A stretch of 54,617 nt of DNA, the filler included, from Sluysia triapertura (lineage: Eukaryota), in NCBI GenBank assembly GCA_046118255.1. It is 4 parts of 4 records of this genome, joined end to end, with 100 filler letters (N's around TTAATTAATTAA, not from the genome) between each part and the next. Parts side by side here need not be neighbours in the genome. Positions count along the whole stretch, not along the records: positions 13,847 to 27,184 come from JBJNIA010045792.1; 3 more parts are not named here. One strand, 5' to 3'. The notes below the pieces were generated by a model. It searched no databases, was not told where the DNA came from, and saw only the letters and a list, made by a program, of their open reading frames with translations. The position numbers were made by a program, and so were the translations under genes. Positions 14,554-50,136 of the stretch are shown here, one piece after another (within the stretch, counting starts at the first letter, position 1; each line of letters opens with the position of its first letter).

Positions 14554-15257
14554 ACCAACAGTGACAATTAATATTTATTTGTGATAATGCTAGTAATATT
14601 GATAACTTACTTGCGATTAAATCTTATTTTGATTCCCGATCTAAATACAAGAGTTTATTTACACTATTTAAATGACTTAAAATTCTTATTATTACTACTG
14701 TAACTATTATTATTTTCGTAATGATAATGATGTATTAAGAAATTATCATTTTACATGATGACGTTCAACAATATAAATATGATATTTTCGTAGGATTGTT
14801 AAGCAACTTTTTTTATTACGAGAAAGTTTTTCACAAAAATTACGTACATATATTTTAAAATGAATATGTTAACCTTTGATTTTATGAAAAGTAGTGTTTG
14901 TATAATACATATTCATTAAAGGTATAAAAATTGTAGATGTATAATTTACACTCATAATGTAAATTCTTAAAATAAATTAAAATTTTTGAAATGAATTTAA
15001 AATCTAGCACTGAATAAAGAATTTTAATTACTCTAAAAGTACTAATATGAATTTCTAAATTATTATATACATCCTATGAAATTAATGTTATGAAAATAAA
15101 GAGTGTAATTATGTTTTAAAAAAGTATTAATTAGTTTGTATCATATTTACAAAAATTTGTTTAAATACACATTATTTTCAGCAATCATAAACGTGATTTT
15201 AAAATTATATTTTTGTTTGTTATATAAAACTAGTAATTAATTTAATATTTTAGAATT

Positions 15258-15566
15258 ATGTCTGGAAACCAAAATGATGTTGAACAACCACCGATTGAAG
15301 TGTTAACAACAATAGTACGTAGTATACCTGTTGGTTTGGGAGGGTATATTATTGGAAAGAAAGGTGGCTTCAAATCAAAACTATTAGAGGAATATGGAGC
15401 ATTCTTAGTTTTATATAATGATGTAAATGATTGTGGGAGACAAATTATTACTTTAAGCTGCCCAGCAGATCAAAAAAAAATTGTGGAAGACATTATAGAT
15501 TATAAAATTGGTCAGTTGCGGAAAATAACAATTAAAACTGTTACAAGCCGACCATCTTTACTAAGA
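15258..15566 (+). CDS. KH-Tudor protein (TDRKH/papi/AKAP1-like), KH exon
   Basis: IPVGLGGYIIGKKGG is a KH GxxG loop. Phase-0 GTAAGG donor at 15567. Confidence 0.8.
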
Positions 15567-16038
15567 GTAAGGTTATAGTTGTTAATTTATTAGGTCATGG
15601 TAAATACCATTGAAAGTTTGAGTTGTTTTGTACGATTTGATTTTTATCATAAATGAAGGAAATGACTAATTCTTCATTTAATTTGTGATTTTAAGTCTTT
15701 ATTTCGATTGTTTTTGGGCTTTGTACCAAAAGTTTTTAAGCTTATGAATATGATAGTTTTATTTAAATTTATCACATTTTTCCACTTTAATCTATGTATG
15801 ATGATCAAACACGTCAAATTAACGATGAATCTGAAATTTAAATCTTAATTGAATTCTTCAGATTATATAGGTGCAATTAATCGTTTTTGAATGGAATTAC
15901 TTTGAATTATATACATAATATTTTAAGTTGAAAAGTTAACAATTAAGTAGAATTGCATCGAAATCGAAATTCAATTATTGATGCAATATTTTTGCAAAAT
16001 AATTTTTCTTGTTAGATTTTGAGGTTATGTTTATTTAG

Positions 16039-16430
16039 CCGCTTGTGCAGCTTGGTAAATTGGTGCCAGGATACGTTATGAACTGTGGGGAAATCGACGA
16101 TTTAATTATTTTGTTAGATCCTCCACGAAGCTCTCGGCAGAAATACACAGACGACTTCTTGAAAATGCATATTGAATTGCAGAAGGACTATGGCAGTGGG
16201 CGTTCCTCAAGTTCGAACATTAACTCACCTCCGCATTTACCACGACCGATATCATCAGGCTGCATATGCGTGGCTCATGGAACTCGCAACCAGTTTTACA
16301 GAAGCCTAGTTCTGCAAGTTATGAACGACAATTTTGAAAATTCCGGTGTTGGAGGTGGTTATGCCGTGGTATATTTCGTGGATGTCGGCAAGTTTGAATG
16401 TTTACCATTCGAAAGATTGTTTAAAATACG
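16039..16430 (+). CDS. KH-Tudor protein, extended Tudor exon
   Basis: TTTAG acceptor in phase 0. G-x-ICVA..FYRSLV..VYFVDVGKFE is the Tudor signature. GTTAG donor at 16431. Later exons were not identified. Confidence 0.8.
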
Positions 16431-17762
16431 GTTAGATTTTTCAAAATCAACTTAAAACATGTGAAATTAAAATTTAATTTATGACTAATTTCAAATTCGG
16501 ATATTTGTCCATTCTGCTCTCTTTTAAACTATAAGAATTACAAAAAACGCTTTATTTTTAAATCCATAGTAACTGTGGATACGCTTCGATTGATTTATTT
16601 TTCAAATACGATTTTTAACAAACGCTTCGCTTACAAAATATCAATTTATAGCAAGTCTTGTTTGATTCAAATTAATTCCTATTTCGAATTTATCGATGAT
16701 AAAGTAGCCTCAAGTTGTAATACATGATTTTTTAAAATTTTTTCATCCTGAGAATTGCTAATATTTTTCAAAAACCTACTAGTTTGTCTTTCTATATTAA
16801 AAATAAATTGTTTCAGGGCACCAGATTCATTGTGTATTAATGTGCAGCACATTGGAATTTTTCGATTAGGATTTCTTAACAATGAATATTGAAAATAATG
16901 ATTTAGACCGCTAAAGATTTCAATGTAAGAAACACAATGAGTGATTTAGTACTCAGTAGATATTAGTGCTCTGTAAGTTAATGTATTATAAACTTATTAA
17001 ATTAAATTGTTTTACATATTGAAAAGTGTTTTATGTTCCAGTTAATTTATTTTTAAGAATCTATAAACGGGTCTTATTTAAATTATCATTACGAAATAGA
17101 AATTTAATGAGTTTCCTTGTAAGCTATGAAAGACCTGTAGGATTTTGAACTGATAATTCCTTAATAAACTTTATCGATTGTTGGTGGGATTTTCTCGCCA
17201 CGTTAATCCAAAATATAGAATTACTTAAATCAGAAACAAGAAACAATGCTGAAGTACATTGAGCTCAATAATTTACTTCTACTAAATTGATAATATAGTT
17301 ATCATGGAATCAGTGTTCTGGATTTATAACTTTTCGGCGTGGGGTAGCACAAATTTACTGCTATGATAGTTTTTTTATATTGAAGTTATTCTTTTGGTAT
17401 CATATATAATATGCTACTGGAAATGTGTTTGATGTTCTGTTCAGGCCTGCTTAAAAAAGCTTAACAAATATTATGTAAACAATAAAAAAGGCATGTTTTT
17501 CTGCATAAGAATAGCAAAAATAAAAGATTTGACTGGTTAATACCCTAGTCCATAGAAATTGCATTATTGGGTACAGTTTTCCTCTTCCTAACCTCCAGAT
17601 TTTTAGGAATTTTAAAAATTATAATAGAAAACTTCTCCAGTTGCCAGTTCTGTTAACCGCCACATTTTAAAAAAAATATTTTAATGCTTTATTTTTACTT
17701 TTGACATGATAAAGTTGTTTTAATATTAATTGTTTATGAAAAATTTTTCATTGGACCTTAGT

Positions 17763-17830: not shown

Positions 17831-18544
17831 AATATGTATATTCAGATAACAGAGTAGCAGAGGTTGATAATTTTAATGGATTTGTTTCTAAAGCACGGAT
17901 ACTTGATTCTCTTTGTGAATATGAATAATTTTAGGTTTTACTGAATATGATGTAATTGTAGAAGAATTTGATTTTGAAAGTAAAAATCTTAAAGAAAATA
18001 CTGGAGTTCAAGAAGTTTTTACAAGTAATGATAAGTTAGATGATGATGAAAAAGAATCATCAGATAATGACATTCATAACGTTGTGTAGGGAAATCACTC
18101 TTCATCACATAAAAACATCGCACATATACACAGATCATTAAACAAACTACTAACTTCATTCAAAAAACAAACATAACCATTGCACGTAATTGTCTTGAAC
18201 TACAGCTTTTATTATAATTCAAATCGTATTAAACTATATATAATAATAATAGTCATTATTGTTATATAATATGATTATCAAATAATAAATTTCATAATAA
18301 CTTTCATATTAATATCACCAACATCATTCTAAATTATATAATAACCGCGTTATTGTTATCAGTATTATTTTTTTAATCCTTATTATCAATCTTTCTTTTT
18401 CCATTTATATATTTATATACGTGTACGATCTGAAAGGAAGATCCGTTAACACATCCATTAGTAACAAATCTGTTGAAGATTTGTTTATTGTTTATTCGAA
18501 TTTAACGATTTACATTTTATTCGCTATATCGATTTGCGAATACA

Positions 18545-18972
18545 TGTATGAAGCCCATCCACCACACTACTACAAATTTAAAATAGCCAATAATTGGTCA
18601 GATGATAATCCAACGTGTGATCAAGTTATGAAGCATAATCCGAATGAAAAATGGAATTTAACTACCGAAGTTTTTAAATATTTTGTCATTATTTTATCAT
18701 TTATCGGAATATTGAAGGAGTGGGCTCAGATGATCACCAAACGTAAACATTATTTAAATATCGAAAATTGGATGGAATGGTTTTTATATATTCTATCCTT
18801 TGTCACTGTATTTGATATGACGTCTTTTACCATCGTAGTTTAGGAATTAGAGAAGCCTGGAAATGGCAAACTGGCTCAGTTGCATCATTTATTTGTATTG
18901 CTAATTTAGTCTTATTTATTCGCAAAGTACCATTTTTCGGGATATTTGTTGTTATGCTTCCTGATATTATGA
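18545..18972 (+). pseudogene. TRPA-family channel transmembrane fragment
   Basis: KEWAQM..KHYLNIENWMEWFLY, then after a frameshift (~18835) WKWQTGSVASF..NLVLFIRKVPFFGIFVVM: the S2 to S4-S5 linker pattern of TRPA1/pyrexia. No ankyrin repeats or pore are present. Confidence 0.8.
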
Positions 18973-19324
18973 ATGATAATGGAAAACAAATCATTTACTA
19001 TTCAACATTTAAATTTAATCCACAAGATTTATCTACAATGATCGTATAACATGTACTGTTCAGAATCGTGCAACTCATTTAATTATTAGTAAAAATAGTA
19101 TTGTACATACTTGTCACAGTCAATATTATTTTCTACAAGTCAAATATGTACAAACTGATGTATCAGTACTTTGTCTGCTCTCCTTTGTTATCCAATAATT
19201 TCTTGTTCCTTAAAAGCATCCTACAATAGAATATTATAAATAAAAATAAAACAAGAATAATAAAAATTATTATTATTATTAATTAAAAATTTATGATACA
19301 AAAAATCAATTTTTTAAAAATGTT

Positions 19325-20526: not shown

Positions 20527-21755
20527 NNNNNNNNNNNNNNNNNNNNNNNNNNNNNNNNNNNNNNNNNNNNNNNNNNNNNNNNNNNNNNNNNNNNNNNNNN
20601 NNNNNNNNNNNNNNNNNNNNNNNNNNNNNNNNNNNNNNNNNNNNNNNNNNNNNNNNNNTTATACATTTAAGCAAACTTTATTAAATGCTTAATAGACTGT
20701 TTTAAAATTAAATATTAAAACACAATCTTTAACAAAACAGACATTTTAGTAATTAATTAATTACTTTTCACAGTTAATATTTTAATATTATAAAATGTAA
20801 TATTAAATCATTTGCTGAAATTAAATTTTAAACATTTAAAAGAAGTTGCGAAGACTGAATATAAGTGAAACAATTAACTTTACATTTTAATATTTACGAA
20901 AAAGAACCCTGTTTTCTAAGATAATTAACATCATTTTAATTAAAATATTTACATTTCAGAATTTATTTCAAAATTTAGTTATTTGCTTTTGATTATAAGT
21001 AACTAAATAAATAAATAATTTAATAAATTGAAAATAACCAAAAGCAAATCCAAAAATAAAATTCCAAATAAATAAAATGATGCGTTACGTCAATAAATAC
21101 TTTTGTATGTAAGGTAAACGTTTTAAACTATACAAACATGTGCAAAAATATAAACGTATTTTCACAATTTAATGATATTTTAAGTAAAATATTGTGATTT
21201 TCTGAAAAATATTTTTATACATATAAGTTATACTTGTTATTCCGGTAGATTAGGTACTTCCCATTTTTCCAAATGAATCTTAAGACTGATACCTAGGCAA
21301 TTAGTAATACTAATGCTTATATTAATTGAAATCGAAATAAAATGATTTCATAAAATTCAAAGTCACTGAACCTTCGTAGAACTTCATAAGAAATTTCTTA
21401 TATACTTTATATACATGAAAGAATCAAATAATTTACTGACTTTAAAATTATCAGAAACATTAATTTTTTTGTTCCGTTAAATTCGTCGATTTCAAATCTG
21501 GATTAAACACGTTCAGAGTTTTAAAATTACAGTAATAAATATGATAAAAGGAGTAGTATTGTAGTGATGTCGAGGTGGCAACAAATGTTACATATAAGAA
21601 AATGTTAATAAAAAAGATTTTATTACGCGTTTATGATTTGCCGGAAATAAAAGTGTGATACTGCAGATATTGTAAATGTGTTCTATTTTGATATGATTTT
21701 TGTTTGTGATGGATGGTGATAATGGATGAGATGTATGTGATATAGTGGGATGTAA

Positions 21756-22031
21756 CACCACAGATGGGTTAGACCAATCATAGATACCGGCGCTACTATT
21801 GCTGTGGTTCACAAAAATTTTCTAACTACTTGGGAATCGATATTCCTAAACAGACCAAGTTTAATAACATATAATGTTAATCAAACACCAATAAATATAA
21901 ATGGAACGCTATTATGCTATATAGAAGTATTAGGACAATATGTACAAACTTTAGTAAATGTTTGGGATAATAGTCCATATGAATTGATATTAGGGATGGG
22001 TGTTATAAATAGATTAAGTATGGATTTATAA
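21756..22031 (+). CDS. Retropepsin-type aspartyl protease
   Basis: Extending ORF 21804 upstream gives RWVRPIIDTGATIAVV (DTG at 21783-21791), with the C-terminal YELILGM motif. Confidence 0.8.
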   Translation, partial: HHRWVRPIIDTGATIAVVHKNFLTTWESIFLNRPSLITYNVNQTPININGTLLCYIEVLGQYVQTLVNVWDNSPYELILGMGVINRLSMDL

Positions 22032-22069
22032 GTAAGTATGGATTTATAAAAATACCACCAGGTTCAAAC

Positions 22070-22933
22070 ATGATTATACCCCACACATTAGTTCCACAAG
22101 TTGGTGATGAATTAACTCTATATCAAATGCCTATGTCAAATCCACCATTACAAGTTTCGGACTTACCATTACCTGACATTATTGAATCTACATTCCATCT
22201 ATCAGATGTGTCATGGGGATCACCATCAACAATTACATCAGAGGAGAATTCGGATTCAGGAATCAGCTCTGACATACATGATACAGTAATGATAATAAGT
22301 AATATAAGAAAAAGAAACCACCTTAATAGAAATTGTTTTAGGAAAATAACTTGTTGGTTTACTATCTTGATTGCGATTTTTCTATCACTAATAACTAATG
22401 CCATAGCAACAGAAACGGACGAAGAATATAAAAATATGAATATAGCTACAAATCATGGTAGAGAACAGAAAATAATGATTACCGATATTTACAACCAATT
22501 TTGGAAATTTGAATTCATTTCTAAGAAAATGATTCTTCGACACAAATTCGAAATTTATTGTGTCTATTTGAAGCCATTGCAAGTTGGAAAACCACATCAT
22601 TTAAACGGTATCCCACATTGTTTACATTACGGTTATAGACCAATGTTAATAATTTTCTCTTTTGATACTCCAAGAAATACACGAGACACACAGAAATTTA
22701 TTAAACAAATAGATCAATTGCGAAATAAAGAAACAACGAAAACACAGACAACTTCACCTGTATATAGTACAATTAAGAAATCAATAGGTAATTCAAACAA
22801 TTTATATACAAAATGTACAATAGAAAATCCCTATAAATGTACAATACTACATATATTTTGGACCGTACTCTATTTGTTTCAAATAAGTAAGAAAATACGG
22901 GTTCCACAAATAATAAAAATCTTATACCTTTAA
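22070..22933 (+). CDS. Membrane polyprotein, part 1 (unknown)
   Basis: 287 aa: acidic linker, basic patch, then signal-like hydrophobic ITCWFTILIAIFLSLITNAIA. Confidence 0.6.
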   Translation: MIIPHTLVPQVGDELTLYQMPMSNPPLQVSDLPLPDIIESTFHLSDVSWGSPSTITSEENSDSGISSDIHDTVMIISNIRKRNHLNRNCFRKITCWFTILIAIFLSLITNAIATETDEEYKNMNIATNHGREQKIMITDIYNQFWKFEFISKKMILRHKFEIYCVYLKPLQVGKPHHLNGIPHCLHYGYRPMLIIFSFDTPRNTRDTQKFIKQIDQLRNKETTKTQTTSPVYSTIKKSIGNSNNLYTKCTIENPYKCTILHIFWTVLYLFQISKKIRVPQIIKILYL

Positions 22934-23025
22934 TTTTAATTACGATAGCTCAATGTCACGAACAATCTTTTAAGACGGAATATTTCGAATTCTATAATGG
23001 AGACAATGAAGTAAAAGTAAAAATA

Positions 23026-24498
23026 TTGAATGAAAACATTCATGCCAATTTTGCATGTTTAAAACCTGCCAGACTTAATTTTAGTTCATGGATTATACAC
23101 GAAAATTATATCGATAATGAATTAAGATATCCAGTCACGGTTTGCTCAGATATTTTACAGATCGAGGATAGACATATTATAGTAAGATTTCGCCATTTAC
23201 ATTTTGCATTTAAAGGAACAAGAAAGAATCTAACAATATTGGAGATACTACGGAATAATCCAGCGTTAGTAATATTAATTGCAGCGGAAATACTGTTCAT
23301 AATAGCTTTGGCTATAGTGGTATTGACTATCATTATGTTTATCTCGAATAGATGTCGATACCCATGCCTACCACATTACAATAATAATGATGGCAACGAC
23401 GCATACACAGTTCCACATAGAAACAATTACGCTCCTCCTCCAGGTATGCCAATACTTCAAACTCCCATTTACGAATATGCTACAAATAATCAAATACCGC
23501 TCGTATATGGAGATTGGCAAATGACTCAAGTCAAATCTATAATCTTAATATGTATTTACCTGTCTTCTATGTCTAGTGCAAATGATCTATCAGAAAACAC
23601 CACGCCTAAGGTAATTTTAGTCTCTACTCAAAAAGACGTATATGCTAGAATAATTGACAAAATTAAGTTATTTTCAGCTAAAATAAAGTGTTGTATAATG
23701 GATTGGTGTGAAATTGAAACAAGAGCAAGTAAACAGGACTTCTATTGGTTTATATCTTGTATTGATCTTGCCGAATTCCAACTAATTAGTGTAACAATAA
23801 CAATGGAACTAGAATATGATTCTCAAAGTGACTCCAGAACTATCCTAATACGGTATTATAAGATAAGAACTAAACCTTTTATTTTTCGACAATCTTCAAC
23901 AAAAATTGAATTTCCAATGATCATCTATCGCGATCTCCGAAATGTTGTACGCATTCACAATCCACTACACAATAATACATTATTGATCTCTTACGAACTG
24001 AGTAATGGATTGCGTTATGGAATAATATTGCCTAACGAAACTATTCGTTTATATCATATTCCGAATAATACACTCATGTTTGTTAAGTTCTGGATAATAA
24101 GAAAAGATGAAATACTTAATTCTAAAGGATTTTGGCCATCGATTAGGTATCACGACGTGCAGGTGCCAATTATAGATAAGAACGGAAATGATTCAGATTC
24201 AAAACCAAAGAAAATACTTCAAATTAATAACAATAGTACGAATGTATCGAATAACGAATATAGGAACATTAATATGACTACTACCAGTACAGATAAGATC
24301 ACAATTCTAAATACTACTAAGTTAAATGAGAAATCGAATAACGAAAACACTAAATGTTCAATTATAAAAGAATCCAACAATAATTTCTTGACAACTGTAA
24401 ATTACATTTTAATAATAACTTCTTTATTAACCTTAATAATTAATTTTATTATTCCAAAGTTTTACGTGTTTATTAGGCATATGGCACATTTTATATAA
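23026..24498 (+). CDS. Membrane polyprotein, part 2 (env-like or accessory, unknown)
   Basis: 490 aa: TM helix, Pro/Tyr-rich tail, second signal-like segment, ectodomain with many NxS/T sites, N/T-rich stalk and a C-terminal TM. Confidence 0.7.
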   Translation: MNENIHANFACLKPARLNFSSWIIHENYIDNELRYPVTVCSDILQIEDRHIIVRFRHLHFAFKGTRKNLTILEILRNNPALVILIAAEILFIIALAIVVLTIIMFISNRCRYPCLPHYNNNDGNDAYTVPHRNNYAPPPGMPILQTPIYEYATNNQIPLVYGDWQMTQVKSIILICIYLSSMSSANDLSENTTPKVILVSTQKDVYARIIDKIKLFSAKIKCCIMDWCEIETRASKQDFYWFISCIDLAEFQLISVTITMELEYDSQSDSRTILIRYYKIRTKPFIFRQSSTKIEFPMIIYRDLRNVVRIHNPLHNNTLLISYELSNGLRYGIILPNETIRLYHIPNNTLMFVKFWIIRKDEILNSKGFWPSIRYHDVQVPIIDKNGNDSDSKPKKILQINNNSTNVSNNEYRNINMTTTSTDKITILNTTKLNEKSNNENTKCSIIKESNNNFLTTVNYILIITSLLTLIINFIIPKFYVFIRHMAHFI

Positions 24499-24741
24499 AT
24501 TTTTAACACATATTGCATAATTGACCATATGTAATGGCACTCCCATTCATGTTGGGTCATGTGTAATATTAAAATTATAAAATCAAATTTGTAAATATAA
24601 TAAGGATTGTGCATATGACTGTATGTGGTGGTTTACCACCCATCTCGAGTCATGCACTTAAAATATTACTTAAAATTAATATAAGTTTAGGATTTTTAAT
24701 ATTATTTATTTATTATCTTATTATATATTTTTATTTTTTAG

Positions 24742-25200
24742 CTAGTACAAACAATAATTTCCTTTTCAACGTGTGCCATCTGTCTGCGCTCCCTTCGTAA
24801 GTATTTTGCAAAAACCTCTCCTTGCTTCCACCGTTTCCACTTCTTTTGTCTCTACCATCTTTTTGAATCTTCTCCTACACCTTTACCAAATTGTCCTTTA
24901 TGCAGAATTACCATCCATAAATGTGACATTTTTTATAAGCGTATTTTTCGACGATCGTATGAATTCACGATCAAGTATATAACAGACGAGTCAGAAGAAC
25001 CTGGCATTGACTTATATCAACCAGAATCGCCTTTAAGAAAAAATAACACAAGACCGCCTCCAAATTTTCCCAAAACTTTAACTAAGTCACAAAGACGCAA
25101 CAGGAGAAGGCGTCAGTTAAAGCATTTTTATAAGCAGATAGAACAAAAAACATCTAAACCTTCTAAAATCCCTAACCCATTCTTAAAAAAGAGATATTAG
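24742..25200 (+). CDS. RING-H2 finger + Arg-rich motif exon (152 aa, no start codon; absent from ORF track)
   Basis: After a T-rich TAG acceptor at 24741 the frame reads CAIC-x13-CFHRFHFFC-x14-CPLCR ... TKSQRRNRRRRQLK ... KKRY*. Confidence 0.85.
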   Translation, partial: LVQTIISFSTCAICLRSLRKYFAKTSPCFHRFHFFCLYHLFESSPTPLPNCPLCRITIHKCDIFYKRIFRRSYEFTIKYITDESEEPGIDLYQPESPLRKNNTRPPPNFPKTLTKSQRRNRRRRQLKHFYKQIEQKTSKPSKIPNPFLKKRY

Positions 25201-25312
25201 GTTTTTCAAAAAATTGTTTTCATTATTATAATAAAATTAAAATAATTACAATAAGCTTACTTAATTATAATTTTTTTGTGTACAATTTTATGTTTTATTC
25301 TCCTCTATATAG

Positions 25313-26652
25313 ACAAAAATGCAAGCCAAGATCCTGAATCAGCCCAAAAATTTTTACGTTCACGTGGATAAATTCTGCCACCAGAGTATTACCCCCGCCT
25401 TCTTTTCTTGCTCAGTTGAAACACCTAACAACCTTAAATCAGAACTAAACCTTAATCTAGCAACACATATTTTTTCTTTGAAGCCCGAAACACCTTTAGT
25501 TTCACTTGATGGCTTATCCCAAATCCCTGAAACAATAGATTCCTTGTATTTGGCTGTAGCACGAGGAGTAGTTAAAGTTGCGTTATTTGATAATGGCGTT
25601 CCGTTTCATACTCGTCTCCACATGTTTTCCTCGTTGTATATATCAAAAATACACAAAAAGTGTAATATAGTTATTGAGGCTAATGAATATCCTACCTCAA
25701 TTGCTCTTCTTTTTCCTTTACCACTTTCTTCTTTTCAGTCCTTTCTCCCCAATTTGTATAAGGAAGATAGTGCTAACCTGACACGATGGAAAAATGGAAC
25801 ATCTTTTACACATGTTTCACCCATGTCGGTTGAGGATGAAGACAGTTTAGTCTTTGTTGCATACTCATATGCCTACGATTTTTTAAATCAACCCCACATA
25901 CTCAAATATCCTGTACTCCTTATTCCCGACAATTTCATAATGACATAAACATAAAGCCGCGTCTGCGTATTAAAAACTTTGTGAGGGACGTACATGAGAT
26001 GAAAGATTCGGATATTTCCGAAGCAAAGGATATTGATGATGTCCGCCCTTTCTTGCTGGGACATCTTCATGATAAGATAATGGTCTCACTAAATCCGTAC
26101 CTTATTATCCATGACTTAGATCTTCCATTTGGTTGGCTCAAAGGGATTATTAATTTATCTAATAATAATCTAGTATCTTATTCCACAGACAACGCAATCT
26201 TAAGAGGGAGACAGACTTTTAAATTGCTCTATCCAATACCTCCTCGGATGACATGTTCACGAATGTCATTCGAATTAGTTGCCTTGCTGGATAAAATTCG
26301 CGAAAAAGATTTAACATTTATTGCTAATTGTTCTCTTCCTCCTTCACTTTTTTCTGGTTCTTCTTCTCTCAATCATAATACTCTTGTGGCACCTATGAAA
26401 TCGACAGCAACATCGTCAACAACATCTGACCCAGTATCAGTAACAGCGCGGTCCAGCCAACAATTATCATCATCATCATCTACTATACAACAGCGAAATT
26501 TACATCCAGAATCGCCTCGGCCAACACGAATTCCACTGGGACCGAATTTAGCATTTCCACAATATAAAAAGAAGAGTTATCAATCACTCACCAGTCCACC
26601 TGATCCGACTGTGTGGAGTGACGACTCTGATGTGGACTTAGATGACTGTTAA
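25313..26652 (+). CDS. Unknown protein split into 209-aa and 223-aa ORFs by a probable frameshift near 25930
   Basis: AG acceptor at 25312 is in phase with the ATG at 25319. The second frame is open upstream into the end of the first. S/P-rich and acidic C-terminus. Confidence 0.6.
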
Positions 26653-26734
26653 CCATAACGAATTTTAACTCTGATTTATATTTTTCTTTATTTTATTTCA
26701 TTTATTTATTTTTTTTATTGTTGCCTGCTTCCTC

Positions 26735-27184
26735 GATTCGAGACGAATCTTTCCGAACGGGTAAGTATTGTAAATATTAAAAGTATCTGTAAAGTAAACA
26801 GTATATATATTTTTACGTATTTTTATTGTCAATATTTTTAATTTTTATAATATTTAGCTTAATGATATTAATTATAAAATTTAATAAGAATTGCAAATTT
26901 AGTAATTTTTGAATAATTATATTGATAATTATAAATACAAATCTAAGTAATTATTATTTAAAATTATTCATCTAATTTTTATAAACAAAGTTTATTACAA
27001 ATTTAGTTAATTATTAATATTTATGTTTATAAAGGAAATTTACAAATATAAAGGAAGTTACAAAGTTTGTTACAAATCTAGCTAATTAATATTTATGTTT
27101 ATAAAGGAAATTTACAAAAGGAAGTTAATATTCAATCGAAATTTAATTATTCAAATAATTATTAAAGGAAATAGCTGATTTAAT
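26735..27184 (+). mobile_element. Gypsy-like PPT region and start of a putative 3' LTR
   Basis: TTCGAGACGAATCTTTCCGAACGGGTAAGTAT|TGTAAAT (TGT at 26769) resembles gypsy pre-PPT/PPT junctions. The AT-rich downstream part has a ~70-bp tandem duplication (~26988-27128) and is cut by the contig end. Confidence 0.55.
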
Positions 27185-27284
27185 NNNNNNNNNNNNNNNN
27201 NNNNNNNNNNNNNNNNNNNNNNNNNNNNTTAATTAATTAANNNNNNNNNNNNNNNNNNNNNNNNNNNNNNNNNNNNNNNNNNNN
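27185..27284. other. Artificial contig spacer
   Basis: 44 N + TTAATTAATTAA + 44 N. Confidence 0.97.
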
Positions 27285-28849: not shown

Positions 28850-31800
28850 TTAGCCCTCCTTTTAAGAAGCGGAGCGAGCGTAATCATTTTTGGTGCATAT
28901 TATATTGGCTTACTTTTGAGGTTACGTGGCCCTTTTTATTGTGATAATATGGATGTGGGTCGAAGGACACTGATTTTTTGATGATTTACCAGTATAGTGG
29001 CCGGTTTTAGTATACACCAGTTAATTGTTTTGTCTTGTCCGCTGATATCGACAATAGCGGTGTTATTTTCCAATTTAAATTTTTTAACTCGATGGGGTCC
29101 GGCATACTTTGGCTCTAGAGAAGTTGGGTTTTCGATTGATACCCAAACAAATTGACTATCTTGGATGTTTTGAGGGATGTGGATATAAGAATTATTGTTA
29201 TGACGGGTAGATTTGGCCAGTTGGTTGAAATATTCTCGGAGAAGAGATGAATAAACTTTCTCTGTGGGATTATAAGATTCAAATAGTTCGAAAGGTAACC
29301 TTATGTTTGTTCCTAGAACTATTTGAGCTGGCGAATATCCAGTTGAAGTATGTGGAATATTATGCCATCCTAAGAATATTAAAGGTAATGCGCCAACCCA
29401 GTTATGATGTACAGACTACGCACGCAAGGAGTTTTGAGGGTGCGGTGAAACCTCTCAATCATACCATTAGATTGTGGATGATATGCTGTTGTTCGGAGTC
29501 TAGTGCTGCCCAATTGTTTTATTAAATTATTGAATAAGCCAGACTCGAATTGAGCTCCTTGATCTGTGATAATCCTTTAAGGAACTCCGAAGTGAGAAAT
29601 CCAACGTGTAATTAGGATTCTGGAGATAGTCTCCGAAGTTATATTCCTAATGGGAAGCATCTGGCCAGCGGCTATGTCAGTCTATAATTGTTAAAAGATA
29701 TGTGTAGCCACGGGATTGTGATAATGGACCGACAATGTCCATACGAATAGTTTCGAATAAGTGGCCAGTTGGGAAATGAAGTTGTCCCGGTTTAATATGT
29801 TTGTGGACTTTCACAGACTAGCATATTAAACAAGCTTTGCACCAGTGTTTGATATCTTTGTGCATTGAAGGCCAAATCACTTTGGAACGTAATACTTCAT
29901 ATGTGGCCTTAGCCCCAGAGTGAGTGATGTTATGCATGTATTGAAAAGCTTTAAATCTAAGCTTTTGGCCTAAAACTGGGCGCGATATACCTGATAGCTG
30001 ATGGTCAAAATAAATTCCCTCACGCAAAAGTGGCATGGTAGTGAATTGGGAGATTTTGCTGTAGATCCTACGGGGATAAGGCGTCCGCGACCACATCTTC
30101 TTGTCCCGGAATATATTCAATATTGAAATTGAATTGGGAAAGATAACTGATGTGCCGTTGTTGCATGGGTGTTGGATTCTTCATGTTAAAGATGTGTAAC
30201 AGCGGCTTGTGGTCCGATCGTAATGTGAACTGAGCTGAAAGAAGCAAATATTCGAAATACTTTACTGATAAGTAAATAGCCAGCAATTCACGATCGAAAG
30301 CGGAATATCGTGTTTGTGGGGCAGACAACTTGCATGAAAAGAATTTTATAGGTTTTGAAGTTCCTTGTTGCATCTGCGTAAGTACAGCGCCTAATGCTAT
30401 GTTAGAGGCATCCGTAGTGAGGATAAAAGGTACTTGTGGCAGAGAGAATGACAAACTGTTCATAATGACTTCCTTGGTGCGATAGAAAGAAACCAAAGAA
30501 TTTTGATCCCATTGAATTGATTGCGATTTTTATATGTGAAAGCTTCGGTATAAATCTTCGACAATAATTGACTAGCCCTAAGAGACTCCGCATTTGTGTA
30601 ACTGTTTGTGGTTGCGGAAAGTTTCTTATTGCCGACGTACGGCTTTCTAATGGTTGAATGCCGTCAACGGAAATATGGTGACCTAGAAATGTAATTCTCG
30701 GCTTGAAGAATTGTTATTTCGTCGGTTTAATAATTAAACTATTGCCGGCCAATTTCTTGAGCATGGTATCCAAATGAATTTGGTGTTGTTGGATATGTCA
30801 ATATAGGCCGTTGAGAATGGCAATCCTTGAAGAACTTGGTCGATATGACGCTGAAAAGTTTGTGCAACATTGTGTAAGCCGAAAGGCATTCTGATATATT
30901 CAAAGAGACTAAAAGGGTAGTTATTGCCGTTTTGGGTATATCAAGATCGTGCACCGGTATTTGGTGATAGGCCTTGGCTAAGTCAATTGATGAAAAGACG
31001 CTGCATCCAGAAAACCAATGTAATATATCCGTTATAAGAGGCATCGGGTATGCGTCGGGTATAGTTACCTTATTCAACATTCTATAGTCGCCGCATATTC
31101 GAATATTACCATCTTTTTTCTTTACGATTTGTAGAGGTGAGGCCCAAGGTGGTGGGGATCGCCGTACAATTCCTCGTGTTTCCATGTCAAGGAATTCTAA
31201 CTCTGCTTGTGCACGGATTTTCTGAGATAATTCTCTCTGCGTTGTCTGCAAGGAGGGGTTGGTAAAGTCTTGATAAAATGCACTGAGTTAGGTACATGAC
31301 TTGAATTGGATTGTTGATTAAGTAATTCAGGGTAAACCTGCTCCACATAGGAAATAATATTTGTTTCATTGAGTTGTTGAAGTTGTATCCTTATGTGGGA
31401 CACTTGTCCAGAGCTTTTACTTAAAGTTTTTGATCTGAGAAAATCTGTTCCCAAGATTGGCTGTTGAACTGCAGCTAGCTATAAGAAAATTCCATTGGAA
31501 TACTTCAGTGACGACCATTGGCGTGCTCAGTTTTTTGAGGCTGTGTCAAATGAATTAAACTGATTACAGCCGTCCATGCATCTTTTGGCCAGATCTTTAA
31601 AGTATGCATGGTAGATAAATATATTTTTGATCCTCAGGGTATTAAGTTTATTTGGGTATTTGCAACATAGTACGCAGCATTTGGCCTTCTGCTGGAACTT
31701 ATTGTGGTAATAGCAGATACCATTGAATTTCCTGAGGTTACTGGATGATTTGTGCGATGTTGAAGACGACCTAGAATTAGAGGGTGAGTTTTGTTTGAAA

Positions 31801-32070
31801 GTTTTTTTATTTTGTTTGTCGAGAAGATTTACTGAAAGCATCTTGGTTATTTCTCCCATTTGGTTGGTCAGTGCATCGATTCGTTGAGACATTGCTTCGA
31901 GTGCACTGTTAGACGTGGCAGTGGATGATGAGGCCTGTAAGTGTGATGCGCCTTTCATTAGATTTATTTTGTCAGGGCGGTCGGTACTCCATTGAATTAG
32001 AATATTGTCCGCCAAGAAGGTCATATCGTCGATATCAGTGGTCCGACTGACAGGCAAACAGCCTTAACAA
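28604..32070 (-). mobile_element. Decayed, 5'-truncated Ty3/Gypsy retrotransposon (CsRn1/Kabuki-like)
   Basis: Gag with CYYHNKF..AKCC motif; protease remnant PILGTDFL; RT WASPLQIVKKKDG..CGDYRMLN..PDAYPMP..IDLAKAYHQI; RNase H LTTDAS..YSAFDRELLA..SDHKPL..VADALS; integrase HHCC, TAYHPQSNGMIERFHR, YAGP. Many stops and frameshifts. Confidence 0.97.
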
Positions 32071-32499
32071 TGTTTCACTGATAGTTTAATTTTGCTTGAA
32101 TAAGCGGAAACTAAATCCTTGAGCCATATTTCCAATTTGTATAATTCTCAAAATCCACATTTCAACCATGACCACTTTTAATTACTGCCCATTAACTAGC
32201 ATTACAATTGGTATCGTTAGTACATAATAATGAAAGTCACTAATTTTAGTCAACATTATAAAATAAAATAAACCATTTAACCTCAATTCAAATCCTACGA
32301 TCTATCCCTTAAATGTGTAAGCCTAGGATCGTAGGATTGTAATAAATAACATCACAATTTCTTTCCTCTTCAACAAAAATTCATCAAAAACAAAACAGTA
32401 TGTTATGGGCTATTGGCGTCACATATATATAATGACCCCAATTTCTTGTCACAAATATGTGACGATTGTCAATTATCAGTTTAGGACAAGTCTGTATGA

Positions 32500-33722: not shown

Positions 33723-36091
33723 CGCCAATACCTCACTTTGCGTCGGAGTTACGACACAAATTGAAATGACGCAATAGCAAACCATGTAAAGATCGAAGAT
33801 AGGTTCCAGGGTTACGAAAATACTACTTTTTAAAAAGAAAATTGAACAAAGTAAACATGAAAAAAATAAAATTTTATTACATACATACAAAAAACAAAAA
33901 AAACGTATTCAGTTTAAATAAAATAAACTATTCAATTAATTTATGAAAAACAAAATTAAAATAAATCACTGTCTGATGAGTCTATGGTGGCTGTTATCGA
34001 AAGTCGGCTTTCTTTGACAAAAAAATTGGTCAAATTCTTGCCGAACAGCTTTTTTTCAAAGTAAAATAAATTTCCTTGTAGCAATTGATATTCGTAGCTA
34101 CAGCCTGGGACACTGTAAAACTCCTTCCGCTGTCAGGATCGTTTTTTAAAAAATCTCCATAGCTTCGTCAATCAAACACATCGCTTTGGAAATTTGTTTG
34201 GAGGTTAAATTTTGTTCTTCGGAGATTTATATTGAACGATTACTGTCATTTTCTTCATTAGCAAATTGCAATTCCAGTTGCAATAGTTCTTCATTAGAGA
34301 ATTCTTAGTTGTGCGAGGTTAGCAATTCGTTTATGTCAGTTTCCTCCATACCTTCAAAATTAGACTCTATAGCTAAATTAGAAATTTCATGACTAACAGC
34401 TGGTGCACCATCAACTTCTTCAGCGCATATTCGGTGAACACATTCAGGCCATATTTTGCGCCAAACACCATTCATGCAACATGGTTTAACCTCCCACGAA
34501 TCGGGAATAATTTCTATGGCTTTCGTAATGTTGAACTTTTTCCAAAACTCTAGCATGGTAGGCTTATCTTGTCCATCAGTCTCACTTAAAAGAAGTTTAA
34601 ATGTCGATATTACTTCCTGATCCATTGGCTAAATAACTGGTGTCGTATTAAGCGGCAAAAATACAAATTTCACGTTTTCTGACTACTCATCATGTATTGG
34701 GTGGCCAGGAGCATTGTCTAGTAGGACCAAAGCCTTGAAGTTTAAGTTTTCTTTGTTGCAATAAGCTTTAATTTCAGGAATAGCACAAGTCGAAACCCAG
34801 TTTTGAAATAATGATGTTGTCATCCATGCTTTTTTGTTTACTCGCCAGTGGATAGGAAGCAGATTCTTTGAACAACCTTTCATAGCTCTTGGATTTTCTG
34901 ATTGAAAAATGAAAAGTGGTTTAAATTTGAAATAACCATTTGCATTACCACCAAGAAGAGTCAGTCTATCTTTGCTAGCTTTAAATCCTGGCGCAGATTT
35001 TTCTGTTTTAGATGTGAAAGTTCTGTTAAGTAGATGTTTCCAAAATAACCCAGTCTCGTCAACATTAAAGACTTGTCTCGGATCATATCCACATTCATGA
35101 ATTAATGCTTTTAACTCTGTCGAGTAGTGTTTTGCAGAAGTTATATAAGCGCTAGCTGCTTCGCCTTTAAGAGCAATGCTGTGCAGATTTGCTCGAATTT
35201 TGAATCTCTCAAACCAGCCCTGACTAGCTTCAAATGTTTCATTCTTGTATGTATTACTACCACTAGCATTATCTTTGGATACTGCTTTACTTTTTATGTC
35301 ATCAAATAAGCTTTTTGCTTTTGTCTGAGTTACCATTTTACTTAATGGTATTCTCTGCGCAACTTGATTTTCAATCCAAATAGAAAGCAAGGACTCTATT
35401 TTTATCATCAAAGCACTCCTTGTACGAGTTACCGTTTTAGCATATAATGATGTTGCAGATTTTGCAGCCTCTATTATTTTATCACCATCTCGATCTCTAA
35501 TAGTTCTGACAGTTGTTGCAGCCAGACCAACAGCCTTTGCTATCTCCACAGCCTTTTCACCCTTATCATATCGTCTCAGAATATCTAATTTTGTCTCCAA
35601 GCTGATAGTTTTATTATATTTTTGGTAATTCTACCAGCAGTGCCCTTTCCACTCATTTGGCTAAAAATTTACAAATGTAATTAAAAAATAATATAATTCT
35701 GCCAATAAATAAATTGGAAAAATATTTACCTTTTTTGTAACCCGTAAAAATTTATAAAAATTTATCATTCTCTTTTAAAAAAAGCACAACACATTACATA
35801 ATTGAAACCTGAACTAAAATTGGCAAAACAAAGTGAAAATAAAACTGTATTAAAATTGCGTTGATTTTCAGTTAGAAATGGAATCCAGAGTTTTGATGGC
35901 ATGGCGCAATTAGAAACAAAAGTTGTGCCATCTTTTAGAAAAAAGAAAATTACAAAAAAAATTAAAGACTCGAACCCAAAACAACGTAACGTCGAAAATC
36001 TAACGACGCACAATGAAAATTAGTACTAATTAAGCAGCGACACAACTTCGAAAAAGTGCGAAACGAAACGATGCAAAGTGAGGTATTTTAA
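33723..36091 (-). mobile_element. Tigger/pogo DNA transposon with decayed transposase (~35656 to ~33965)
   Basis: TIRs AATACCTCACTTTGCGTCG (33727-33745) and CGATGCAAAGTGAGGTATT (36069-36087). Translation includes ASQGWFERFK, GEAASA, VFNVDETGLFWK, LLLDNAPGH-like, QPMDQEVI motifs. Frameshifts and stops present. Confidence 0.97.
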
Positions 36092-37039: not shown

Positions 37040-37414
37040 TATTTTATAATTTTTATATGGTACAGGTACGTTTTTCAATCTTTGGACATGTGTTGTTTAG
37101 TCTGGATTGGTGTGAGCAGATGTTTCTTGATAGTTAAACCGAACATGGAAAGAAAGTATCTCGAAACTCGTATATCACATATTTGTATTCCAGTAGGACT
37201 GGTTTTGTTTTCTATTGTTATAGGAGTATTTCAAATTATTATTCGGAAACCAGCAATACATTTGAATTTAACTTTTATTTGGTGTTCTATCAATCCCAAA
37301 GAAGATATTTATTCCATTCTAGGTATAGGTAATGCATTGATAATGATGCTAGTATGCTATACAGTTATATTTATTACTGTTTTACGACAACAGAAAAAAA
37401 TAGCAGATATGAAG
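37040..37414 (+). CDS. Rhodopsin-class GPCR exon (TM3-TM5)
   Basis: LVWIGVSRCFLIVKP (DRY-equivalent), TM4, ECL2 WC, TM5 LVCYTVIFITV, basic ICL3, then a GTTAG donor. The 5' junction may be damaged. Confidence 0.7.
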
Positions 37415-38118
37415 TTAGTTTGTATTTGCAGTTTTTAAAGTTTAAAATATTAAAAAATAATTGTTATACATTATCACGAGTATCTTTAGTCGAAAGAGTT
37501 TTAAATTATTAGGATAATTTTAAGAGAACTATAATTAATGTTACTATAAAGAACTTGATATATACAAATTGAGAATAAACAATTTATTTAATGAATTTGC
37601 AATTTTCAATAAATTGTTTATTTCTCAAGCATACGAAATCTAAGTATCATTCTTAAATTTCTAAAGTTTTTAAAACTCTTCATTTGTTTAGATCTAAGCC
37701 TAAAAGTGTCAATTAAAGCGACTAAGAAAATAAATTGACTGAATTAATTACTCATTTAATTAATTATTTCATTTAATTCAAAACAGTTTTTTAAAACAAA
37801 TTTAAACCATGTTTTAACATTATTAGATTACAACATTTGTAAACACCATAATTCCGATTGTCTTCACATTATTGTCATCATTATTTATTTATTTTCCATT
37901 TAAGTAATAAATTTATTCTATACATTAAAGGAAAAGAAACGAAATTTGGAGGTAACAAATTCGTGTTTTTGATTGAATAACTGTCATAGTGTAAACGAAG
38001 TGTTAACACTACTATATGCAAACGAATTTAAACGGATTCAGCGTCAAAATAACGAAATACAAAATTTATTTAAGCAATTTTTGATTGAATTACTAAAAGA
38101 TTCAGAAACAGCAAAGTA

Positions 38119-38459: not shown

Positions 38460-39300
38460 GATATAATACTATAATAAAAATATATTAATTTATATTGCGC
38501 TCAAATATACTGCAAAATAAGTACTCAAAATAAGTACTATAATGTTTCTAAAATAGAAAAAACTTTGCCTGTTTCTTAAATACTTCATAATTTTCCAGCA
38601 ATTTGACATTCTCTGGTAGCTGGTTGTATATGTTTGAACCATAAACGGCATATAACCCATCATGTAGCATATTATCACAGTCGATTCTGTATAGATTATT
38701 ATGTCTCAATTAAATATTTGTCTTGGTTTCTAAATCTTTTATTACTTCTAAGAGATTCAGGACTTCCGTAATGCAAGTATTTGTAAATTATTGTCATGAT
38801 TTTGAATTTTACTCTTGCTTTTATTAGAAACCAATGTAATTCCTTAAGGTAAGAAGATAAGGAGATCTTCTTCATACTTCGAAAATTAGTCTTGCTGCTT
38901 GATTAATTATTAATTGTAATTTTTTCACTTTTATACATGAAATTTAGTGCAATATACCATTGTTAAAATCTGTGTTATTAGTTATCAATGAATGAACAAT
39001 TAGTTTATCTGTACTTTATTAATAAATTTTCCAACATTTGATATTTTCTTTAATTAATATTTACACCTTTTAACAAAAGAATAAATATTTTCTTCCATGT
39101 TCAATTTTGAATATATATAACAGCCTACATTTCGCACTTTTAGTTTCGCATATAGCGTCTAACCACTTACAATTAACTTTGTTTCGTTTATTTTGGTATT
39201 GTGGCCATTTTTATAACTAAAGATTATAAATTCTGACTTTTCTTCACTGATTTTCAAGTATATATTACCAAACCATTTTATCAATTCAAATCAAACGGAA
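38460..39300 (-). mobile_element. 5'-truncated L2/CR1-group LINE, ORF2 C-terminus and 3' end
   Basis: Broken translation WF..YLKISEEKSEFIIF..VRNVG..LIVHSLI..NQAARLIF..LKELHWFLIKARVKFKI..IYNQLPENVK..FKK, followed by a GAGCGCAATATAAAT tail. Confidence 0.85.
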
Positions 39301-40630
39301 TAATAGTATCAAAAAATATTTTCAGTTTAGCTGAATCAATAGAATACTATTACCGATAATAAACAACATAATATTTAAAATTACACAATACTTATTTTGT
39401 CTCGTTTATAGTCTACATCGGAAGATTTAAAAGAAGAGAAACAAAAGCTTCAATAGCAACTTGTTTTTGTTATGCTGATTCATTCTTTTCGTTATGTAAC
39501 ATACTTGTACATAAAATATTGTTCCAGAATCATCAACACTATATTTATATTTATTACAATAGTCAGTACATTAACTTTTGTCCAACGTGAATTTCTAATT
39601 CAATTCAAGTCATCATCGGCTTGTGTTTTTTTCGAGATTCTCTTTTACATAACTCATACTCTTCCAAATTAATAGTTACACCATTTCCTTCACATGTCAA
39701 CAGAGAATGTCACAGCTTGCAGTTTTACAAAAAATGTATAAGTACATAATTTAATTAATTAATTTGATTTAAATTGTTTGATAATCATTTTAATCAATAG
39801 CGCATGAGAAGGCATCACATGTAATAAAATGCAATTGTGAAATTTATTAGTGTTATGAACACCGAGATAGTACGAACCACATCAGCGTAGATAACGTAAA
39901 ATCATCAGTTTTAATTAATTTTCTTTATTATAAAGTTAAATTTCTGTATTTTTATAATGGGCATACACAGTAAAAGTATATATCAAATTAATGCTCATTA
40001 AGAGATCATTCTATACCTTACTGAAATTGATGTGCTATCGTTAAAATGTTGCACATTGTATTACAAGTTATTATTGAAAATAAGTATTATATTTGATTAG
40101 AAATATATTTAAGTTAATGCATTGTATCAATAATATTGATATAACTATGATGTTAAATTTTAATTTTATTATTTTGAAAAGATAAGATAAAAAACTCTTT
40201 ATCTTTAATAATATTAAAAGGGAAATTCGACGGAAATTTATGTTCAAATTTATAAATAAAAATGATCGGCATAAAACCGACTTCATGAAATAAGTTGTAA
40301 GATTTCATTAAGAAAAGGCAAAGAACTTAACCAAGCTTTAAAAGCATATCAAAAAAGTTTTTACAAAACTCAAGAATGGCAAAAAGATTTCGATAAACAT
40401 AATTGATTTATATTTTATTGAATTATTTTGAGATTGATTTATAGTGAATTATGATTAATTGTCATAAAGAGCCTAATTTATTTTGAGTTAACTGTTACTT
40501 GATATATTTTGTGATACAGTTATAATATATTGATATTCAAACTCATTTAATTGTGTTTTTATGTTGTTAATTTACAAACATAAAAACACAGCAGAATTAA
40601 AAATTGTTTTTGTTTATAGTTTAAATTCAT

Positions 40631-41978: not shown

Positions 41979-42078
41979 NNNNNNNNNNNNNNNNNNNNNN
42001 NNNNNNNNNNNNNNNNNNNNNNTTAATTAATTAANNNNNNNNNNNNNNNNNNNNNNNNNNNNNNNNNNNNNNNNNNNN
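41979..42078. other. Artificial contig spacer
   Basis: 44 N + TTAATTAATTAA + 44 N. Confidence 0.97.
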
Positions 42079-45855: not shown

Positions 45856-46644
45856 TCTGTGGTTTTCTTAATGCTAAACCTACGGCAAAATAAAATTGAG
45901 CATGGTCCACTTACAGTAAGCGTCTTACAACTAGTACTTTGCACCTCTGTAGCTAATCTTACTTAAAAATCTTACTTAAATCACTTGAAAATATCACGTT
46001 TAACACCTTCCTCTAATTAGGGTCTCATTTAATTATGACAATTATACCAATTTAACAAGAACGAAAAGTAACACTTAATTTTTATTGTTAAAATACTTAC
46101 AAATTTAATAATATAATATGAAATAGCGCTCTTTGTAATTAAATTTATTTAAGAATCTTTATTTTGAATTGAAATTTTAATAATATAATATTCCTCTCGT
46201 TATATCGAGGAAAAACAATAATTAATAAAAGATTTTAAGATATTATTTAATATTTTATCTTCTCCAGGAAACACAAATTACCGTAAGCATGAAAAGTATC
46301 CAATAATCCAATAAGTATCCAATTATACAATTAAATTCGTAGACCAACTATTAATGTTGAAAAAACCAAAATTGAATTTGTGTAACTGATAAAATAACTA
46401 AAAAATTGATGACAACTGTAAAATGGCGATTTTCATTAAACATTCTAGAAGCTTCTATTCTATTTATAGAAGCAAATTATCTTTTTAGAATTTCTATTTT
46501 CTTTTTTGAAAAAAAATTTTTTTCTTTTTTAGAAAATAAAAATGTTTTTGGATATTTGGAAACTTTAAAATATTTTTTAAATGATTTAAAAATTTTTTAA
46601 TAATATTTTATGTAATTTTTGAGGATCGTGATGGCAATCTAACA
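45856..46644 (+). repeat. ~0.8-kb LTR-like repeat family, copy 2
   Basis: Shares TTACAGTAAGCGTCTTACAAC with copy 4 and TTTTGGATATTTGGAAA..GATGGCAA..TAACA with copy 3. Confidence 0.85.
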
Positions 46645-47679
46645 ATTTACTTTAATTGAGTAGAATACATGAAGAAATAATACATAGTCCTGGTTTTCGT
46701 TATCGAGCAAATATTGTGAATGGTATGCAGAATGATAAATTATGGTAGGAATAATTGCATCTAATATAATTATATCAATTTTTCTATGTATGAATTTCCA
46801 TGAATTTAATTTCTGTCAATTAAATATATCCCTTCACATGCATTTTGACCCGAATTTTATTAATGACGAATAATTTTTAAGCTGAGCAAAATCTCATTTC
46901 ATGTACAATTTGTATTGCAAAATAAATGATGCCAAACAAAAATCATTTATTGCATAATTAATACAGCTATCAAGAAAAATATATAATGAGCAAAACCTTT
47001 TAAACTGTACAATCACATTACTTTTGAAAATTTTTACATCATCTTATACTTCAAAGTACTTCGAAATATGAAATTAAATATTTAAATATAACTGTAATTG
47101 GAGAGACTGTATTTTAAATATTAATTATTTCAGTTATTTTACTAACGAATGAATGGTTAATTACGAATTGCATGATTCTTCAACCTTTAGTACTTCAGTG
47201 CAATTCAGTTTTGTATTTTCACATCAAACCGTAATCAAAATTAAGTATCTTTAAATATATTTCGCAACGAATTTCCAATGAAATCGCGGTAGATCAAAAT
47301 AGTAAATTTCCAACAATATCGTAATTAATACCACATGAATAATTTATGTTTTATTACTTTTAAGTTTAAGTGAAATTGATTTTATATCATTAAAAATCTT
47401 AACTAATTTAGTAAATTTTATTTTTGTAATCAATTCTATATTTCATTTTAATTCTGAACTTTTCCAGATTCTTTGAAAAATTCCAATTATCGTGAATAAT
47501 TGACTAATTAAATTATGATTCAATTTTAATTTCATCGTTTTACTTTAATTAATAACCCATTTCTAAATATTTTAGTAGTTAGTTATCTTAAATCGCTTTT
47601 TGTGGTAGAGATGGAACTGCAAAATTGTTGCACTTTTAAAGTCATTCTAAGATTAGATTGTATGATATAAAATAATCAT

Positions 47680-49831: not shown

Positions 49832-49886
49832 ATGGCAAGTTTTATAGCTAAGCAATTGGTTGGTAAACAGTTAGAGTCAGTTAAAG
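49832..49886 (+). CDS. cpx: Complexin, coding exon 1
   Basis: Reads MASFIAKQLVGKQLESVK(G). Phase-1 GT donor at 49887. Confidence 0.93.
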
Positions 49887-49961
49887 GTATTAATTTATGT
49901 GCATTGATAAATTGTGTGAAATTATCAATATAATGATTTGATCAATTTGAATTGAATTAAG

Positions 49962-50125: not shown

Positions 50126-50136
50126 GTAATTGATTA

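Follow-up and report, generated by a model that had tools for sequence, protein, structure and literature searches.

A RING-H2 frame with an arginine-rich motif in a probable gypsy-type relic of Sluysia triapertura: a candidate spliced accessory ubiquitin ligase

Gene content of the window

The window, that is, the whole stretch of 54,617 nucleotides from Sluysia triapertura analysed here, is AT-rich animal DNA in which several pieces of host genes were recognised: an Unkempt-like CCCH finger (6257-6715), a TDRKH-like gene with KH plus Tudor domains (15246-16455), a piece of a channel that is presumably TRPA-like (18313-19049), a weak 7tm_1 match (37040-37438) and complexin (Synaphin, 49833-50134). 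Mobile or repeated sequences were also found. A gypsy element whose RT, RNase H and integrase frames are broken (28936-32063, minus strand; Pfam RVT_1, RT_RNaseH and Integrase_H2C2) is unrelated to the element described below and separated from it by an N gap. A fragmented Monjiviricetes_fusion glycoprotein at a contig edge (13799-14574, minus strand) could be the env of another retroelement or a piece of an endogenous RNA virus, and a broken transposase of the pogo/Tigger type (CENP-B_N, HTH_Tnp_Tc5, DDE_1) occupies 34305-35630 on the minus strand. Three diverged copies of a unit of several hundred bases, 71-73% identical, are spread over 45863-52000; they contain no long frame and no Rfam match, and are possibly a tandem gene family with short minus-strand exons.

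The window is interrupted by three gaps of 100 nt (13747-13846, 27185-27284 and 41979-42078), each composed of 44 N, a 12-base linker with stops in all frames and another 44 N, and by a gap of 132 N without linker (20527-20658). Since the pieces flanking the linker-bearing gaps may be concatenated, adjacency across these gaps is not to be trusted.

A run of intronless frames around a RING-H2 frame

The piece 20659-27184 carries a 5-kb run of intronless frames, all on the plus strand, with a weak protease remnant on its upstream side and the end motif of gypsy elements on the other. Within this run lies a frame of 152 codons plus stop (24742..25200, +), called here the RING frame, which is a probable spliced accessory exon. 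An earlier note on this DNA had described it as an open frame that lacks a start codon and directly follows a polypyrimidine-TAG acceptor; both points held, in that the translated frame contains no Met and opens right behind an acceptor-like TAG at 24739-24741, with pyrimidines at 14 of the 19 nucleotides before it. An equally long frame arose in none of 2000 shuffles of 24500-25500.

The upstream end of the run is a remnant of a retroviral-type aspartic protease with a DTGA motif (21756..22031, +). It aligns with positions 9-92 of the 92 positions of Pfam gag-asp_proteas (E 0.0017), with a score of 19.3 bits that stays under the cut-off of 28.2; no match was found in the PDB, among 54 homologue candidates or in viral contigs. 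A 172-bp segment bounded by terminal inverted repeats of 8 bp (21586..21757, unstranded) truncates the protease frame on its 5' side. This segment was considered as the 5' LTR of the element and ruled out, as it shows no similarity to the putative 3' LTR and 41 of 100 shuffles score equally. An 18-bp tandem duplication (22015-22049) marks the junction between the protease and frame A.

Four further frames, for none of which a family could be assigned, surround the RING frame. Frame A (306 codons; 22013..22933, +) has a signal-peptide-like hydrophobic segment at residues 108-135. Frame B (535 codons; 22891..24498, +) resembles a pair of small type I membrane proteins within a single frame, as it has 12 N-glycosylation sequons and two segments of transmembrane type. 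On the other side, frame D (211 codons; 25313..25948, +) starts at an ATG at 25319, six bases behind a TAG acceptor of its own (25310-25312); it was predicted by single-sequence AlphaFold at a pLDDT of 33 and has no neighbours in the ESM Atlas. Frame E (270 codons; 25840..26652, +) overlaps frame D and carries a Ser/Thr-rich tail. The three ectodomain-like segments of the element are unlike one another. Overlaps in different phases occur between the protease and A, A and B, and D and E, which look like broken frames. A spacer of 118 nt with an AATAAA at 25230 separates the stop of the RING frame from frame D and, given this signal and the acceptor of frame D, the cassette appears to be expressed through several processed mRNAs.

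The RING finger and the basic helix

Residues 11-54 of the RING frame form a RING-H2 (C3H2C3) finger (24772..24903, +), with Arg55 directly behind it. The claim that the finger is complete was borne out: all eight zinc ligands (C11, C14, C28, H30, H33, C36, C51 and C54) are kept at the canonical spacing, and Pfam zf-RING_2 matches with 33.1 bits against a cut-off of 27.3 (E 6.9e-8). RING ligases made up the top rows of a PDB sequence search, the best being AMFR/gp78 (E 0.00064), which aligned over the 44-residue finger. In this alignment, I13, L15, P52-L53 and R55 of the RING frame are in register with the AMFR RING, and we take these residues to have E2-contact and linchpin roles. Judged from its sequence, the finger has the E2-side hydrophobic residues and the linchpin Arg of RING E3 ligases.

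Behind the finger, where the earlier note had placed it, stands the Arg-rich motif TKSQRRNRRRRQLK (residues 114-127; 25081..25122, +), at the start of a predicted helix that spans residues 115-137. It is the sole stretch with at least 6 Arg in 7 residues across the six frames of the window and, since its Arg codons are mixed, it is not a microsatellite. The helix 115-137 was predicted by single-sequence AlphaFold at a block pLDDT of 80-88, residues 71-105 were of low confidence, and the model left the RING unfolded. On this prediction, residues 115-137 form a helix whose basic character could suit nuclear import or RNA binding. The look-alikes of the RING frame in the ESM Atlas (scores 0.88-0.90, 124-145 shared features), to be read as leads only, were generic small RING proteins, many or most of them from large DNA viruses.

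Ends and identity of the element

Downstream of frame E, the run is closed by a Ty3/gypsy-type end motif with a degraded polypurine tract (8 of 12 purines; 26735..26768, +), 18 of 19 nt of which match a metagenome locus, L006. Six such loci were retrieved from metagenome contigs with a pattern made from this end region plus a known motif; as the pattern was partly built from the window, the match is post hoc. The end motif closes a Ty3/gypsy integrase (rve + SH3_Tf2-1) in L006 and precedes the start of an LTR in L002. A TG(T/A) within 4-9 nt after the motif and a purine tract were found in all six loci, of which L005-L007 are mutually related and not independent. When the L006 motif was scored in the window, the site reached 31, which none of 40 shuffles attained, versus 24 for the next best; with the L002 version, 2 of 40 shuffles attained the score. 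The L002 locus itself (1-2097, minus strand) is a short LTR element without coding sequence; besides sharing the end motif, it has a primer-binding-like site and shows TGTCAC/GTGACA at the border of its LTR. Directly behind the motif in the window lies a putative 3' LTR (26769..27116, +), which starts with TGT and has an inverted 7-mer of its start at 27038 and 27110. The contig ends at 27184, about 400 nt past the LTR start, and no 5' partner of this LTR was found within the contig.

Frames A, B, D and E gave no Pfam match to RT, RNase H or integrase, and B, D and E gave no PDB match to them. Regarding gag, no CCHC knuckle was found, and the longest open stretch in 20659-22100 is that of the protease (91 codons). 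The element does not belong to an autonomous Ty3/gypsy family and, with gag, RT, RNase H and integrase missing, it could have moved only via an autonomous partner or is a deleted relic. We consider it quite probable that the run represents the 3' portion of a gypsy-type element that has decayed or is non-autonomous.

Searches for relatives were blank: none was found for the RING frame among 35 candidates of near and 106 of longer lengths, for frame B among 1.84 billion representatives, or by exact look-up of 10 frames; viral contigs held no relatives of the element frames and no match to its DNA patterns, none of 317 stretches of metagenome contigs matched, and PHROGs gave chance-level matches only. 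As the collections searched are poor in animal repeats, these blanks carry little weight. A single 27-aa match to a viral contig (L001, E 4e-4) was taken as chance.

The absence of the core retro-enzymes, together with the predominance of large-DNA-virus RINGs among the ESM Atlas leads and the resemblance of the acceptor to host acceptors, would also fit a terminal exon of a host RING gene, or a cargo insertion from a DNA virus or another source near retroelement debris. Such an origin is unlikely. No recognisable host-type exons lie upstream, and long intronless frames make up the flanks; neither Pfam nor PHROGs gave a match to genes of a DNA virus, Maverick or Helitron; a conserved host ligase should have a database relative, and none was found in the collections searched; and the protease and end motif enclose the run with the order and strand expected of such an element. 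The location in a mobile element proposed by the earlier note agrees with what surrounds the frame, namely the protease remnant upstream, the gypsy end motif downstream and intronless neighbours, a layout unlike that of an ordinary intron-rich host gene: the five long same-strand intronless frames contrast with the short exons of the host.

The acceptor and the start of the RING frame

A very AT-rich tract, rich in T, leads up to tandem TAG acceptor candidates at the opening of the RING frame (24739..24745, +), where splicing is predicted. A junction at 24741 would be in phase 0 relative to the frame, and the second TAG (24743-24745) in phase 1. The GC content rises from 3% in the 40 nt before the first TAG to 43% in the first 60 nt after it, and a similar step, from 17% to 50%, follows the TAG at the boundary of the host Tudor exon. 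Among 25 frames of at least 100 codons, two, the RING frame and frame D, open after a TAG with at least 13 pyrimidines in 19, the background being 122 of 8495 stop triplets; an equally good pyrimidine tract stands before 82 of the 2070 YAG sites of the window. It should be noted that a consensus donor at 24797 lies inside the RING; splicing from it would delete the greater part of the finger and might yield a different product. Another donor, at 22032, was set aside, as it falls on the junction of the 18-bp tandem duplication.

The RING frame is predicted to come from a spliced mRNA. A donor, likeliest in the lost 5' part of the element, would join this acceptor and bring the start codon, as in env or ORF3 messages, and of the four start routes considered we favour this one, a cis donor within the leader that was lost with the 5' part, for which the ORF3s of rotifer LTR elements, made from spliced messages (accessible text of PMC5408684), are a precedent. 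As the neighbouring frames look broken, the absent ATG could also be the result of decay.

The phase of the acceptor 24741, which lets all 152 codons be read, is also what operon-like trans-splicing would require: a leader would be added at 24742 and its terminal AUG would serve as start codon, as in flatworms, with no cis donor involved. The spacers before and after the RING frame (243 and 118 nt) are under the 300-nt threshold of flatworm operons given in the accessible text of PMC12582326, the AATAAA at 25230 stands ahead of the next acceptor, flatworm leaders are described as ending in an AUG able to initiate translation (accessible text of PMC9851317), and the spliced mRNA of Cer1 takes SL1 (accessible text of PMC3315495). 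However, trans-splicing of this kind needs a flatworm host, whereas the complexin, KH-Tudor and TRPA-like genes identify the host no further than as an animal; moreover, the spacer between frame B and the RING frame has no AATAAA and no SL RNA was found in the window, over which Rfam and ARAGORN returned nothing. We regard this route as improbable.

The membrane-protein character of the neighbouring frames, and their broken appearance, raise another reading in which the RING would be the cytoplasmic end of a membrane-anchored ligase that down-regulates host surface proteins. Two routes could lead to such a protein, a broken frame from an ATG at 24615 or a cis-splice from a donor in frame A (22887) to the acceptor at 24745. 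The ATG at 24615 opens a 61-codon frame, which has a hydrophobic segment and overlaps the start of the RING frame; under block shuffling, such an open frame arose in 88 of 5000 cases, and one with a hydrophobic segment in 31 of 5000. However, the GC content of the segment is 7%, versus 17-32% in the other hydrophobic segments of the element; its excess of T at second codon positions is not significant (1752 of 5000 shuffles, a weak test that only one of the four other segments passed); the other two spacers read hydrophobic too; 7 of 70 short ATG frames in the window are as hydrophobic as this one; and the ATG sits in a hairpin arm. The donor at 22887 follows a hydrophobic stretch and is phase-compatible with 24745, but such a fit is expected two-thirds of the time given two acceptors. 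A basic motif of nuclear type also fits a membrane protein poorly, and we hold the membrane-anchored form to be rather unlikely.

Hairpins in the spacer and the resemblance to Rev

Two hairpins are predicted in the 243-nt spacer upstream of the acceptor. Hairpin 1 (24510..24569, +), a long one, folds at -22.0 kcal/mol on the plus strand versus -13.1 on the minus strand, a sense bias that arises through G-U pairs, and 3 of 1000 shuffles were as stable; hairpin 2 (24609..24657, +) folds on both strands, and none of 1000 shuffles was as stable on the plus strand. The spacer as a whole has a z score of -3.59 (0 of 200 shuffles), and, of 343 windows folded across the element, the best three fall within it, the spacer having been chosen post hoc. 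Outside the element, z fell below -3 in 16 of 1078 windows, and in none of the 1078 was this combined with an MFE of -20 or lower, as it is in both hairpins. Rfam gave only chance-level rows for the hairpins, and the 3' end region of the element showed no unusual folding (z -0.63). Strong folding (z -4.2 to -4.9) was also seen in the 70-nt windows 10531-10600, 13006-13075, 32266-32335, 39286-39355 and 48151-48220, which may be small inverted-repeat elements.

In a Rev/RRE-like loop, the Arg-rich helix would bind the two hairpins of its own intron and free unspliced RNA from nuclear retention, while the RING would remove or modify a retention or silencing factor. The folding statistics and the sense bias of hairpin 1 are consistent with it, the Pfam REV match covers profile positions 24-50 and so extends beyond the Arg run, and a precedent exists in CERV, the spliced export factor of Cer1 (accessible text of PMC10309623). 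Against this, control windows also reach z below -3, the choice of the spacer was post hoc, and the hairpins could be pre-miRNA-like instead. The REV match scores 14.2 bits with the whole frame and 16.8 with the tail, below the cut-off of 22, while RNase P protein (16.3) and RFC1 (15.5) score alike. No Rev chain appeared among the 56 PDB rows at E<=1, and the 46-aa motif region returned no row at E<=10. The sole match to a leucine-rich export signal, searched with one regular expression, lies inside the RING, with none after the motif. By these comparisons the RING frame is not a Rev homologue or family member, and the likeness is likely convergent, in line with the earlier note, which had called it short and probably convergent; a functional Rev/RRE-like loop is doubtful. 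Equally speculative is a broader proposal of an undescribed, complex invertebrate gypsy lineage with a retrovirus-like accessory set of three small membrane glycoproteins and a spliced RING protein with the Arg-rich motif; this protein would bind the hairpins of its intron and, through ubiquitination, release unspliced genomic RNA from silencing or nuclear retention, so that an independently evolved Rev/RRE switch would be fused to an ICP0-like ligase, possibly started by a spliced-leader AUG; we think it unlikely to hold.

Proposed role of the RING frame

Taken together, the sequence features suggest that the RING-H2 and Arg-rich frame is an accessory gene, predicted to be expressed by splicing, of a gypsy-type LTR element now decayed, and that its product would act as a nuclear E3 ubiquitin ligase. 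We put the probability of this reading at about 0.5, a value that applies to the whole chain, every step of which beyond the presence of the finger is inferential. The RING would recruit a host E2; the basic helix would direct its localisation to the nucleus or nucleolus, with RNA binding as a possible further function; and by tagging a host factor that acts in silencing or defence, the ligase would let the RNA of the element survive.

To our knowledge, export of unspliced RNA and resistance to silencing by LTR retrotransposons are known for few animal elements, Cer1 with its CERV protein being one case. The RING frame is a small, directly testable candidate for an anti-defence protein and belongs to a five-frame cassette without a database relative, although its value is limited for now, as it rests on one decayed copy.

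Comparison with known systems

In the open-access literature, supplements and Repbase aside, no stand-alone RING-H2 exon with an Arg-rich motif was found in the accessory region of an animal gypsy element. The closest likeness of the finger is to cellular RING-H2 ligases (PF13639; AMFR/gp78, Arkadia/ARK2C and synoviolin), with which it shares the ligand set and spacing, the hydrophobic residues at both zinc sites and the Arg after the last Cys. In these ligases a Trp is usual in the central helix, whereas the RING frame has a Leu there; it also differs from them in having no known flanking domain and in its mobile-element location.

The comparison with ICP0 made in the earlier note holds loosely. 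With the ICP0-type ligases of herpesviruses the RING frame shares an N-terminal RING, a basic tail of low complexity behind it and a proposed counter-defence role, and the PDB search matched the EHV-1 RING domain 1chc to the RING frame (E 0.0014). The type of finger differs, since ICP0 fingers are of the C3HC4 type and an H2 finger is found here, the best PDB rows are cellular RING-H2 ligases, and no similarity extends outside the finger. With HIV-1 Rev (PF00424), the motif shares 8 identities in 14 positions, taking the Rev sequence as quoted in the earlier note, as well as a predicted helix and a Pro-rich stretch before the motif that lies inside the profile match. Unlike in Rev, it is fused to a RING and followed by no recognised export signal, and no first helix was confidently predicted.

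Among LTR elements, those of bdelloid rotifers carry non-env ORFs downstream of pol, including small transmembrane proteins, that are expressed from spliced messages, and include a non-autonomous family without most of pol (accessible text of PMC5408684). Their ORF3 cargo is described there as GDSL, DEDDy, coiled-coil or transmembrane, usually in a single ORF, whereas five frames stand in a row here. The word RING does not occur in the accessible text of that paper, nor in the accessible main text of PMC13524379.

CERV, encoded by the Ty3/gypsy element Cer1 of C. elegans, is an accessory protein made from a spliced mRNA; it is nuclear and required for the export of unspliced RNA (accessible text of PMC10309623). 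As described there, it is set apart from the RING frame by its 517 aa, its exons in the gag region, a Cys loop, a G-like domain and a candidate NES, and the RING finger and Arg-rich motif of the RING frame are not mentioned for it in that text. Export has been shown for CERV and is only hypothesised for the RING frame.

The giant gypsy element Burro (GYPSM1) of planarians bears ubiquitination and apoptosis cargo, including an AIR1 RING-bearing domain, MATH/TRAF, BIR and Ubi/SUMO-like domains, and accessory ORFs (accessible text of PMC6431247). Burro-type BIR, MATH and BCL2 motifs gave no Pfam match in the present element. According to the same text, the cargo of Burro lies mostly inside a Gag-Pol of about 4,900 aa, upstream of the protease, whereas here a separate, putative RING-H2 exon stands downstream of the protease, near the 3' end. 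Ubiquitin-pathway cargo in the Burro polyprotein (PMC6431247) and a spliced nuclear export factor in Cer1 (PMC10309623) are, by the accessible texts, already known, and the element described here resembles Burro in being an animal gypsy-type element with ubiquitination-related cargo.
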